Shown: piece by piece, positions 57,940-60,674 of the stretch
How positions within the stretch are numbered: the first letter of the stretch is position 1
Layout: the number at the start of each line of letters is the position of its first letter
Assembly (NCBI GenBank): GCA_964291675.2
Contig: OZ219866.1
Location: 2,688,001 to 2,752,000 of the forward strand
Length of the DNA: 64,000 bases
Reading direction: 5' to 3'
Source of the DNA: Alphaproteobacteria bacterium
GTDB lineage: Bacteria; Pseudomonadota; Alphaproteobacteria; MPNO01
Program-made: the position numbers and the translations under genes
The notes under the pieces: model-generated
The model's database searches: none
Told to the model about the DNA's origin: nothing
The model's input: only the letters and a program-made list of their open reading frames with translations

Positions 57940-58350
57940 TTGCGGTACTTCTTCTACGGCACGCTGCTCGACCCGGATGTGCGGGCGCGCATCCTGGGAG
58001 CGTGGATAGGTCGGCGGGACCTGCCCGCGGCGCGGCTTCCGGGTTACCGGCGGGTCTATATCCGCGGCCGGCACTACCCGGTCGTGGTCCCGGCCGCCGG
58101 GGAGGCGGTGGAGGGCGTGCTGGCCGCCGGGCTCGACCGCGGTGCCGTGCTCCGCCTTGCGCGCTTCGAGAGCGACGAATATGTAGACGCCGAGCGCACC
58201 GTCCTGGTCGAAGGCGGACGGGCGCTCAGGGCGCGTGTATTCGTCGCCGGCCCGCTCGCCCACCCGAGCGATACGCCGTGGACCGTCGAGGCCTGGCGGC
58301 GTCGCCACAAGGGCGCGTTCATGCGCCGTCACTGCGTTCCGTTCCGCTGA
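57940..58350 (+). CDS. gamma-glutamylcyclotransferase (AIG2-like) family protein
   Basis: YFFYGTL, ARLPGYRR, YPVVVP, VEGVL, LARFE..EY; TTG start. Confidence 0.8.
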   Translation: MRYFFYGTLLDPDVRARILGAWIGRRDLPAARLPGYRRVYIRGRHYPVVVPAAGEAVEGVLAAGLDRGAVLRLARFESDEYVDAERTVLVEGGRALRARVFVAGPLAHPSDTPWTVEAWRRRHKGAFMRRHCVPFR

Positions 58351-58373
58351 ACGCCGGGCCGAGGGAGGAGCTG

Positions 58374-58766
58374 ATGGCTGGACCGAAAGTGATGAAGCAA
58401 GACGTGATGAAGGCCTGCGAGGGCATGCTGCAGAAGCAGCTCTACGTCGTCTTCACCACGCCGACGAACGGGCTCGGCCCGGTGATGGAGAATATCGGGC
58501 CGCATCTCGAATACCAGGTCTCGCTGGAGGCGCGCGGCATCATGTTCGGCGCCGGCCCGTTCTGGAACGACGACGAGACCGAGTGGCTGGGCGAGGGGAT
58601 GGTGATCGTCCGCGCCGCCAGCCTCGACGAGGCGAGGGAGATCGCCGCCGCCGACCCGATGCACTCCTCCGGCGCAAGGTCGTTCACGATCCGCCCGTGG
58701 CTGATGAACGAGGGCACGGTAACGGTGAAGATCCGCTACTCCGACGGCTCGCGCGAGGTGATCTGA
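58374..58766 (+). CDS. YciI family protein
   Basis: HLEYQ..LE..G....AGP, GMVIVRA.SLDEA..IAAADP....G.R.F.IRPW; RBS GGAGGAG. Confidence 0.82.
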   Translation: MAGPKVMKQDVMKACEGMLQKQLYVVFTTPTNGLGPVMENIGPHLEYQVSLEARGIMFGAGPFWNDDETEWLGEGMVIVRAASLDEAREIAAADPMHSSGARSFTIRPWLMNEGTVTVKIRYSDGSREVI

Positions 58767-58843
58767 GGGTGGCGCCGGGCGTTGAAGACCCCGCCCGCCT
58801 CGCCTAAGTTGGGGCGGTGGGCAGCGCAGGGAGAGGTGCGCCG

Positions 58844-59521
58844 ATGGCGGACGCAGCGATGGAAAGCCCGGTTACCCTCGACGAGTACCGCGCCATGGAC
58901 ATGGCGCAGCGCCGCGAGGTCTGGCTCGAGATCTCCGACATCACCGAGGCCCAGTTCGACGCCCACATGGCGGAGCAGAAGGCGCGCGAGGCGGCGGTGC
59001 CGCGGGTCGGCTCGATGGCGCCCGATTTCGTCGCCGACCGGCTCGACCGCAACCGCAGGCGGACCGGCCGGCAAATGCGGCTTTCCGACTACCGGGGGAA
59101 GCCGGTGGCGATCGCCTTCGGCTCGTTCACCTGACCTCCGTTCCGCGGCAAGGCCGTGCGCCTTAACGAGCTCTACGCCAGCTACGGGGACCGGGTGGAG
59201 TTCTTCCTGATCTACATCCGCGAGGCCCACCCCGCCAATGGCTGGCAGGTGCCCAACAACCTGATCGAGGACGTGATCTACGACGAGCCGGTCACCGACG
59301 AGGAGCGCAGCGAAATCGCCTCGGCCTGCCAGCTCGCCCTCGATATCGGGATGCCGATGCTGGTCGACCGCATCGACAACCACGTCGAGGAGAAATATGT
59401 CGGCCTGCCGATGCGCCAGTTCCTGATCGACGCCGAGGGCAGGATCGCCTATGCCGGCGCCAAGGGGCCGTTCGGCTGGGACGACGAGGCGTTTGAGGAA
59501 GCGCTGAAGGCGCTCTTGTAG
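58844..59521 (+). CDS. iodothyronine deiodinase-like selenoprotein (thioredoxin/peroxiredoxin-like fold; Sec at codon 97, TGA 59132-59134)
   Basis: Track ORFs 58817..59134 and 59156..59521 are in the same frame. Read-through gives VG..APDF...PVAIAFGSFT-U-PPF...FFLIYIREAHPANGW...VDRIDN...GPFG. RBS GGAGAGG precedes the ATG at 58844. Confidence 0.88.
59135..59170 (+). promoter_or_regulatory. candidate bacterial SECIS hairpin
   Basis: Directly 3' of the TGA: stem CGCGGC/GCCGTG (59144-59158) around AAG, with a possible lower stem CGTT/AACG (59139-59142 with 59165-59168). Confidence 0.55.
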
Positions 59522-59543
59522 CGCCGCCGCCGGGGAGGGCGGA

Positions 59544-59720
59544 GTGCCGAATATCACGGTCTCGGAAGAGGTGCTGAAGAAGCTCCGCGCGCTCAGGCGA
59601 CCGGGCGAGATCACCGACGACCAGGTGCTGGAGCGCATCGTCGGCGAGGCGTCGGGCGAGCAGGAGAAGCGGCTCAGGGCCTACGAGGCGCAGGAGCAGG
59701 ACATCCAGTCGACCAACTGA
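59544..59720 (+). CDS. small 58-aa protein, ribbon-helix-helix / antitoxin-like (not in ORF track)
   Basis: GTG start after GGGAGG; MPNITVSEEVLKKLRALRRPGEITDDQVLERIVGEASGEQEKRLRAYEAQEQDIQSTN; mostly G/C-ending codons; fills the gap between convergent genes. Confidence 0.7.
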   Translation: MPNITVSEEVLKKLRALRRPGEITDDQVLERIVGEASGEQEKRLRAYEAQEQDIQSTN

Positions 59721-59726
59721 GCCCGC

Positions 59727-60674
59727 TCAGATCCCCGCCGAGGCGGCGACCAGGGTGTCGGTCTCCATGTCGTCGTCGCGCACCGCGCCGATCAGGTCGG
59801 TGACGCGGGCGATGCCGCGCGCCGCGCACCACGCCTCCAGGTCGTCGATGATCGCGGTCAGCGCGGTCGGGTTGCGGAACCCGGCATAGCCGATGCCGAC
59901 GCCGTGCGCGCCGGCCAGCATGTACTCGACCACGTCCTCCGCCTTGGTGACGCCGCCGATGCCGATCACCGGCACGGTGACCTCCTTGGCCACCTGGTAG
60001 ACCATCCTGAGCACGATCGGCTTGAGCGCCGGCGAGACCAGCCCGCCGAACTTGTTGCCGAGCGCCGGGCGGAAATTGTCGGTGCGGATCTTGAGCGACA
60101 GGAAGGTGTTGGCGATCACCAGCGCATCGGCGCCCGCCTCCTCGGCGGCGACGGCGATGGAGACGATGTCGCCGGCATTGGGCGACAGCTTGGCCCACAC
60201 CGGGTGGTCGGTGGCGGCGCGGATGTCGCGCATGACCTTCGCCGTGTGCTCCTCGTGCAGCGAGAAATTGCCGCCCGTCGCGTTGCGCGTCGGGCACGAG
60301 ATGTTGACCTCCAGCACGTCGATCTCGGGGACGCTCAGGATCGAGCACATCTCGGCGAACTCGTCCGCGGTCTCCGCCGAGATGCTGGCGATAAACGGCG
60401 GCGTGAACTTCTTGTATTCGGGGACGATGTGGTCGAGAAAGTAGTAGACGCCCTTGCCCGGCAGGCCGATCGACTGGATGATCCCGGCCTCGGTCTCGGC
60501 CATGCGCGGCGTCGGGTTGCCGTTGCGCGGCTCCTTGCAGATCGTCTTGGCGACCAGCCCGCCCAGCCGGTTGAGATCGATCACGTCGGCATATTCCCAG
60601 GAGAACGCGCCCGAGGCGGGCATCACCGGGTTGGCGAGGTCGACGTCGCCGATGCGGATCGAGAGGTCTACCAT
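59727..60674 (-). CDS. pyrD: dihydroorotate dehydrogenase family 1B catalytic subunit-like (divergent active site)
   Basis: NPVMPASG, GNPTPR.AET, EVNISCP, KLSPN, ANT, IGIGGV; several substrate/FMN-binding residues differ from canonical. Confidence 0.75.
   Translation of the reverse strand: MVDLSIRIGDVDLANPVMPASGAFSWEYADVIDLNRLGGLVAKTICKEPRNGNPTPRMAETEAGIIQSIGLPGKGVYYFLDHIVPEYKKFTPPFIASISAETADEFAEMCSILSVPEIDVLEVNISCPTRNATGGNFSLHEEHTAKVMRDIRAATDHPVWAKLSPNAGDIVSIAVAAEEAGADALVIANTFLSLKIRTDNFRPALGNKFGGLVSPALKPIVLRMVYQVAKEVTVPVIGIGGVTKAEDVVEYMLAGAHGVGIGYAGFRNPTALTAIIDDLEAWCAARGIARVTDLIGAVRDDDMETDTLVAASAGI

Follow-up and report, generated by a model that had tools for sequence, protein, structure and literature searches.

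Deiodinase-like selenoproteins of bacteria, with a bacterial SECIS (an insertion sequence for selenocysteine, Sec) and with Cys homologues, were reported in 2005 from the Sargasso Sea (Zhang, Fomenko & Gladyshev, PMC1088965). Passages of that paper describe their function as probably redox and state that thyroid hormones are not expected in bacteria (PMC1088965); their substrate has been an open question since then. Two reviews place the PF00837 family among those selenoproteins of prokaryotes whose function is unknown, and give its motif as UxxC (PMC9312934, PMC13188914). No functional study of a bacterial or prokaryotic deiodinase homologue was found in the full-text literature, subscription journals being outside its coverage. 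Here we describe a gene of this kind in a window of 64,000 nucleotides (the whole stretch of DNA that was analysed) from an alphaproteobacterial genome; all positions below are those of the window, and all features lie on the + strand. Positions 58844-59521 very probably form one intact gene for a soluble bacterial deiodinase-like selenoprotein (PF00837), in which UGA is read as Sec97 and SelB is recruited by a hairpin at 59150-59164. A first-pass annotation of the window had noted that bacterial deiodinase-like selenoproteins are on record without an established substrate, in agreement with the excerpted literature (PMC1088965, PMC13188914).

The gene shares with the described bacterial family the homology to PF00837, the in-frame UGA at the catalytic position, the existence of Cys homologues, and a small SECIS hairpin just past the UGA with a G in its apical loop, as far as the family is described in the passages seen (PMC1088965). 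It differs from the UxxC motif of the review tables, which is given there as a table row only: the motif is U-P-P-F in this gene and U-P-P-(F/Y) in 65 of 65 distinct sequences, with no Cys at position +3. Unlike the listed family, this clade also has its own three-helix N-terminal extension and an invariant Cys162 in the Sec forms. The gene is therefore a further member of an already described bacterial family, set apart by U-P-P-F, a soluble helical N-terminus, Cys162 and a linkage to selA in its relatives.

A single frame runs from ATG 58844 to TAG 59519-59521 over 225 codons, and its lone interruption is the TGA at 59132-59134, which is codon 97. The list of open reading frames (ORFs) of the stretch gives two entries in one common frame, 58817/58844..59134 (ending ...FGSFT) and GTG 59156..59521. 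Translation from ATG 58844 with TGA read as U yielded 225 residues with U at position 97, bearing out the first-pass proposal of two ORFs in one frame that are separated by a single TGA and read through into a 225-aa protein. The motifs quoted there were found exactly as given: FGSFT-U-PPF (residues 92-100, the active-site motif F-G-S-F-T-U-P-P-F at 59117-59143), YIREAHPANGW (124-134) and LPMRQF (188-193). The position of the start codon is common to the genus-level homologues, and a GGAGAGG resembling a Shine-Dalgarno sequence, which may serve as one, is located at 58830-58836, 7 nt 5' of the ATG. The GTG at 59156-59158, taken by ORF finders as the start of a second gene, sits inside the SECIS loop, and database fragments start with MRLNELY at this codon. 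Public gene calls split the homologues into a piece of ~123 aa called "deiodinase" and a piece of ~130 aa called "hypothetical protein", as had been predicted of standard pipelines.

The read-through protein scored 84.2 bits against the Pfam model PF00837 T4_deiodinase, well above the cut-off of 27 and as the suggested Pfam search was expected to show, with residues 46-216 matching profile positions 66-228 of 237. A weaker match to the AhpC/TSA family PF00578 (36.3 bits, cut-off 26) is overlapped by the PF00837 match. The NCBIfam model NF038285, a "deiodinase family protein" with an EF-hand part and a deiodinase domain, was not passed (174.5 bits against a cut-off of 250); the matched model positions were 175-341 of 347, and the score falls under the cut-off because the N-terminal EF-hand part of ~170 residues is missing here, while the catalytic domain is common to both. 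A true member of NF038285, P0052, scored 459.6 bits and has Cys at the catalytic site. Among solved structures, the only strong sequence matches were mouse Dio2 (9h48, E 4.1e-18) and Dio3 (4tr3, E 7.5e-15), with ~26% identity to their catalytic cores. Codon 97 is aligned with the catalytic residue of Dio2 (fgsatCppf) and Dio3 (fgsctCppf), whose crystal constructs carry Sec to Cys replacements according to the entry titles.

An AlphaFold2 model built on a 50-sequence alignment had a pLDDT of 94.3 and a pTM of 0.90, and Dio2 and Dio3 took the top ranks in Foldseek. With VIA-align, Dio2 (Z 20.5, rmsd 3.2, 175 residues aligned) and Dio3 (Z 19.6, rmsd 2.5, 165 aligned) were followed by DsbE, ResA and AhpE (Z 18-18.8, 131-144 aligned). 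The larger number of residues aligned with Dio2 and Dio3 shows that the deiodinase insertion is present. The protein resembles peroxiredoxins and TlpA/ResA-type oxidoreductases in its thioredoxin fold, in a conserved Arg and in the placement of the nucleophile, at the N-terminal end of helix one; unlike them, it has Thr at -1 instead of -3 from the nucleophile, no CxxC, and ~30 extra residues corresponding to the deiodinase insertion. The active-site motif of peroxiredoxins is PxxxTxxC, and it was not found in the sequence A-F-G-S-F-T-U, which has Thr at -1 and no Pro at -7.

The N-terminal extension (residues 1-52, 58844-58999) occupies the place of the membrane anchor of animal deiodinases. 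Three helices were predicted in it, at residues 12-17, 20-30 and 35-51; its sequence is conserved between orthologues, and residues 1-46 of the model were aligned to no solved chain in the match list. A membrane segment usually exceeds a hydropathy threshold of 1.6. The maximum of the Kyte-Doolittle mean over 19 residues was 0.03 in the N-terminal part and 1.17 in the whole protein, so that no N-terminal transmembrane anchor was detected, and the description of the first ~50 residues as hydrophilic was upheld. Compared with Dio2 and Dio3, the protein has the same FGSxT-U-PPF and YIxEAHPxxGW motifs, the Arg of the late motif and Sec at the same position, whereas it has no membrane anchor and its bacterial SECIS is within the ORF, theirs being a 3'-UTR element.

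To describe the conservation of the TGA, loci were fetched in addition to the window's own (L043): 22 from named records of metagenome-assembled genomes (MAGs), 19 from a search of relatives and 39 more. The site was located in 41 loci of the first two sets and in 38 of the 39 of the third, the exception (L101) being a frame-shifted copy with no site. In 79 of the 79 loci with a located site, TGA is present at the same codon in the context FGS(F/Y)T-TGA-PP(F/Y)R, and it is retained down to ~40% sequence identity. Among 61 related genomes of the same order, 44 had a match and 17 had none, and all 59 matches with E <= 1.1e-33 hold exactly one TGA, one of them with a TAA in addition. No Cys form occurs among the 79 located loci of this clade; in the more distant homologues (30-40% identity) Cys was found at the position of the UGA in 13 of the 20 sequences of alignment A1. 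The homologues thus carry TGA or Cys at codon 97, as had been foreseen, and the placement of the TGA on the catalytic Sec position of Dio2 and Dio3, together with its retention, supported the earlier view that it is unlikely to be a random nonsense mutation.

If the UGA were a true stop, the locus would be a pseudogene, the product of a sequencing error, or two small genes of 96 aa and 121 aa, the latter restarting at GTG 59156. ORF finders and public gene calls do report it in this way. Under the two-gene reading, however, codons 98-104, between the TGA and GTG 59156, are non-coding. Of 27 distinct sequences, one (L062) was left out for low identity, and the remaining 26 showed 79 synonymous against 11 non-synonymous codon differences at these codons, with differences by codon position of 9/11/87. 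Codons 98-104 evolve as coding sequence, and purifying selection spans the UGA. In the model the two halves make up a single thioredoxin-fold domain, predicted with confidence, and the active site is where they meet. Four runs were aligned to the stretch, all as contigs; the TGA is spanned by contigs from two other runs and from a metatranscriptome library, and no difference at 59132-59134 was seen among the best-supported differences listed, a further 166 being outside that list. The metatranscriptome contig is 475 nt long, covers 58905-59379 and is from a ~92%-identical relative. Real decay has a different appearance. One homologue (L077, G049:C171) has an extra in-frame TAA 13 codons past the UGA and another (L101, G043:C6) is frame-shifted, and both look decayed or mis-assembled; they show what true disruption looks like in the deiodinase-like family. 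With the same TGA kept in 79 loci and independent contigs in agreement on it, we give a true stop hardly any credence.

A single conserved hairpin was found past the UGA by RNAalifold on 20 sequences. It is the putative upper SECIS hairpin at 59150-59164, beginning 15 nt past the UGA, with the stem AAGGC/GCCUU and the apical loop CGUGC. All five stem pairs are formed in 65 of 65 distinct sequences (alignment A3, gap-free), and two of the five show compensatory changes: pair 19/33 is AU in 26 sequences, CG in 16, GC in 15, UG in 5 and GU in 3, and pair 22/30 is GC in 44, UA in 8, AU in 6, GU in 4 and UG in 3. The covariation score was 0.332, compared with 0.148 ± 0.010 for shuffled alignments (0 of 500 reached the observed value) and 0.041-0.096 when the partners were slid. 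At column 19, which falls on the first position of a codon, the encoded residue varies (K, Q, E, W, R, G) together with the third base of the Leu codon opposite, and only a constraint on the RNA explains this. A lower SECIS stem, pairing 59140-59145 with 59167-59171 around an internal loop, is graded as possible, since 74.5% of its cells are paired; one of its pairs is changed on both sides, yet is unpaired in 45 of the 65 sequences. The SECIS of Escherichia coli fdhF is likewise a hairpin within the coding sequence shortly past the UGA, with a G-U in a small apical loop, and is read by SelB. Compared with it, the hairpin here has a shorter conserved stem (5 bp), the loop CGUGC and a spacing of 15 nt between UGA and stem.

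The same form of hairpin occurs elsewhere in the genome. There are 136 hairpins with a 5-bp stem and the loop CGUG(C/A), and 16 of them have a TGA 12-20 nt upstream. Six of these 16 belong to long frames whose TGA falls on a redox motif, namely the deiodinase-like gene, a gene of the SelW/T/H family (CRV-U) and four C-x-Y-U-T paralogues, so that a CGUG(C/A) loop on a 5-bp stem about 15-19 nt past an in-frame UGA is found in five other genes of the genome, in these five at 16-19 nt.

The first-pass annotation had proposed a search for the Sec machinery, and all of the components were found in the genome, with scores above the curated cut-offs: selD (314 bits), selA (565), selB (456) and tRNA-Sec (76.7), the last with the anticodon TCA according to ARAGORN. 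The cluster selA-selB-selC is ~90 kb from the deiodinase-like gene. The SelW/T/H-like gene with CRV-U scored 53.4 against the TIGR02174 cut-off of 34.2, and one of the four C-x-Y-U-T paralogues, when scanned, reached 311.5 bits on NF041238, a model of an AhpD-related (seleno)protein. Two peroxiredoxin (Prx)-type and two CMD-type genes of the genome have one in-frame TGA each. These further UGA-bearing genes of the Prx, CMD, AhpD-like and SelW-like kinds suggest that the Sec system of the organism is busy. Outside the window, at least nine further genes of this genome (G000) have one in-frame TGA at a redox motif, at C1:551400, C1:739582, C2:581620, C2:1280209, C2:2502686, C2:1413734, C2:1210003, C2:1950075 and C2:768605; they are a SelW/T/H-like gene, four AhpD-related paralogues, two other CMD-type genes, a PrxQ-like gene (TPG-U-T) and a Prx-like gene with HW-U-PFC. 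A Sec-type formate dehydrogenase (TIGR01553) was also considered, and its matches in the genome are without an in-frame stop.

A sense reading of the UGA could also come from a near-cognate or suppressor tRNA (Trp or Cys) in place of Sec-tRNA. One public gene call (P0002) gives W for the homologous TGA, which presumably reflects the use of another genetic code. Ordinary genes end in TGA here, however, including the upstream YCII gene with its stop at 58764-58766, and a suppressor would leave no role for the full Sec machinery or for a conserved hairpin at SECIS distance that is common to the curated selenoprotein genes of the genome. Moreover, animal deiodinases have Sec at this position, and distant homologues have Cys there. 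We consider suppression very improbable, and Sec97 remains the preferred reading of the codon.

All 19 other genomes in the window's own family have both the gene and selA. It is present in 44 of the 61 genomes of the order sample, compared with only 4 of 300 further genomes, an even draw from across the class, and a TGA occurs in two of these four; in the genomes sampled, the clade is concentrated in one alphaproteobacterial order. Some relatives have up to four copies, each with TGA. The nearest loci (87-94% identity) are in MAGs labelled Defluviicoccus sp. or Alphaproteobacteria bacterium, and homologues also occur in MAGs titled Defluviicoccus, Xanthobacteraceae, Beijerinckia and Betaproteobacteria. 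Of the runs in which parts of the stretch occur, most bear the label sponge metagenome.

In a sister family (f3), 10 of the 15 genomes with a match (four genera) have their best homologue directly upstream of selA and in the same orientation, and the order homologue, selA, selB was found with Pfam in all three such loci that were fetched (L136, L137 and L138; L137 is G055:C1:448813-459442). The ten genomes are G025, G031, G034, G039, G041, G043, G047, G049, G055 and G057, with a gap to selA of ~70-220 nt. Just upstream at L137 there are, in addition, a CMD gene and a truncated AhpC/TSA call, and together with selA and selB the locus looks like an island of selenoprotein and sel genes. In one genome of another family (f4) the gene is ~5 kb from selA. 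This linkage, and the occurrence of the gene in every other selA-positive genome of its own family, would suit a protein serving selenium handling, such as one that reduces a selenium species, or carries it, for the synthesis of selenophosphate, instead of general redox defence. In the window's genome and genus, however, 90-146 kb separate the gene from selA, 17 of the 61 relatives have no match to the gene although selA is in all 61, and no sequence feature indicates selenium transfer. Selenoprotein genes often adjoin sel genes merely as clients of the pathway. A role in selenium handling is therefore regarded as improbable, and a redox enzyme with Sec at its active site is favored over it.

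Around the gene itself, neighbors encoding isochorismatase, GGACT, YCII, a 58-aa ORF and a DHOD-like pair are common only to the 11 genus-level loci among 22. The 58-codon ORF, at 59544-59720, starts 22 nt 3' of the selenoprotein gene; it has 76-93% aa identity across all 11 genus-level loci and matches no Pfam family, and its match to the N-terminus of the NCBIfam T4SS SepA model is below threshold (E 5e-4, 19.8 bits, cut-off 110). The spacer of 77 nt between the YCII-like gene and the selenoprotein gene (58767-58843) contains a G+C-rich inverted repeat at ~58790-58822. The spacer is the most variable part between strains, with small indels in other runs, and in one RNA-library contig 83 different letters take its place. 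A scan of 58300-59900 for promoter and terminator consensus sequences found none. At three loci (L141, L142 and L146; G055:C6, G025:C3 and G034:C18) a divergent UGA paralogue has EAHPTDGSQSPPN replacing EAHPxxGWQVPNN. It is followed on the same strand by a gene for a PhyH-family dioxygenase and then, two genes downstream of the paralogue, by a gene with a C-terminal glutaredoxin domain, in these three genomes of one genus only. ORFs adjoining deiodinase-like genes at L033:726-1049, L129:5774-6088 and L137:4351-4686 cover no more of the AhpC/TSA profile than its C-terminal two-thirds, starting at about position 45, which is the pattern that would be expected of Sec-peroxiredoxins cut at their UGA.

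Conserved residues were counted in alignment A4, which holds 50 sequences (38 Sec forms and 12 Cys forms). F92, S94, U/C97, Y124, E127, A128, H129, R155, P189, R191, G199 and P209 are invariant in 50 of 50, and T96 is present in 49. Y-I-R-E-A-H (residues 124-129, 59213-59230) is by alignment the counterpart of the YI(D/E)EAH proton-relay motif of deiodinases, and Arg191 in LPMRQF (59414-59416), aligned with Dio3 ...ferlyvi, is the counterpart of the Arg in (F/P)ERLY. In Dio2, according to the excerpts, a proton relay linked by hydrogen bonds is made up of Ser127, Thr129, Tyr157, Glu160, His162 and His182; iodine passes to the selenolate formally as I+, and a distal Cys forms a selenenyl-sulfide in recycling (PMC11592359). 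Conserved counterparts were found for five of these six relay residues (S94, T96, Y124, E127 and H129). Cys162 (59327-59329) lies in a predicted helix at 152-165. All 38 Sec forms have it, as do 5 of the 12 Cys forms; its conservation makes it a candidate resolving thiol of this clade, at a position different from the distal Cys of Dio2 and Dio3.

The conserved relay residues and Cys162 point to a catalytic cycle of the deiodinase or peroxiredoxin type, and, judged from its sequence, the protein most likely works like a deiodinase or a peroxiredoxin. The UGA at 59132-59134 is very probably decoded as Sec97 by SelB with Sec-tRNA(Sec), recruited by the hairpin at 59150-59164. In the cycle, the selenolate of Sec97, tuned by the Ser94-Thr96-Tyr124-Glu127-His129 network and by Arg191, would attack the substrate at an electrophilic atom. 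A thiol, probably that of Cys162, would then capture the selenium in its oxidised state (Se-OH or Se-X) to give a selenenyl-sulfide, and this would be reduced by thioredoxin or glutaredoxin. The substrate may be a peroxide or another oxidised sulfur or oxygen species, with an antioxidant role for the enzyme, an assignment to which we give somewhat less than an even chance.

Several observations weigh against this interpretation. Folding of 59126-59200 alone (minimum free energy -32.6 kcal/mol, z -2.26) gave a structure unlike the conserved hairpin, and the comparative analysis was relied on instead. An Rfam scan of 58500-59900 returned four hits at chance level (E 2.9-9.4, far under the gathering scores), none of them a SECIS. 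There is no enrichment of TGA upstream of the CGUG(C/A) hairpins genome-wide (TGA 16, TGG 14, TGC 16), so the comparison of hairpins within the genome is qualitative. The RNA-library contig across the UGA may stem from DNA, and it comes from the ~92%-identical relative. His182 of Dio2 is not conserved and aligns with Thr151 in HMMER and with Pro149 in a manual re-alignment, and the proximal and distal cysteines of deiodinases are absent, a different Cys (162) being conserved here. The other 11 of the 22 loci share none of the genus-level neighbors, so that the neighborhood is not conserved outside the genus. Among the neighboring ORFs of more distant loci (26 and 76, by Pfam) there was no recurrent partner except selA/selB in the sister family, and none names a substrate. 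Finally, since selA is in 61 of 61 relatives, its co-occurrence with the deiodinase-like gene is uninformative.

The same selenoprotein could instead catalyze a reductive dehalogenation, as animal deiodinases do. Sec97 would take a halogen, formally as X+, from a phenolic compound bearing bromine or iodine, the ring carbon would receive a proton through the Glu127/His129 network, and thiols would regenerate the selenol. By sequence and by structure the closest relatives are Dio2 and Dio3, and the alignment with them takes in ~30 extra residues that have no counterpart in generic thioredoxin-fold proteins. S-x-T-U and Y-x-x-E-A-H, which in the excerpts on Dio2 and Dio3 provide the proton relay and substrate contact (PMC11592359), do not vary across the 50 sequences apart from T96 in one of them. 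The clade keeps Sec strictly (no Cys form among 79 loci), a Sec to Cys replacement being described as costing deiodinases ~1000-fold in activity (PMC11592359). UbiD-family aromatic decarboxylase genes adjoin homologues at 2 of the 19 loci examined, and most of the runs with this DNA are from sponges by their labels. Sponges are rich in halogenated tyrosine derivatives. Nevertheless, no bacterial member has a demonstrated dehalogenation, the equivalent of Dio2 His182 is missing, and no catabolic or halogen-related gene context was seen at 19 diverse loci or at 11 others. The MAG labels Defluviicoccus, Xanthobacteraceae, Beijerinckia and Betaproteobacteria indicate no halogen-rich niche, and the discoverers of the family, in the passages seen, expected a different, redox function (PMC1088965). 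A halogenated phenolic substrate is thus possible but unlikely, and the remaining probability, beyond peroxides and halogenated compounds, belongs to something else. The fuller proposal, that the alphaproteobacterial clade is a selenium-dependent reductive dehalogenase removing bromine or iodine from the halogenated phenolics of its habitat, with Cys162 and glutaredoxin or thioredoxin closing the cycle, is held to be a little less probable still.

For annotation, the gene and its many homologues are cut in two in public calls, and the selenoproteome of this order is therefore undercounted. The SECIS form of this genome (a 5-bp stem with the loop CGUGC, 12-19 nt past the UGA) could help to recover other selenoprotein genes. 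The clade offers a small, soluble and confidently modelled member of the family, in which Sec is strictly conserved and one Cys is a candidate resolving thiol, and it suits a test of peroxidase against dehalogenase activity. If the protein were merely another antioxidant selenoprotein, the find would be a routine one. If it were a dehalogenase, it would bear on the origin of thyroid-hormone deiodination, as a bacterial prototype of the animal deiodinases.

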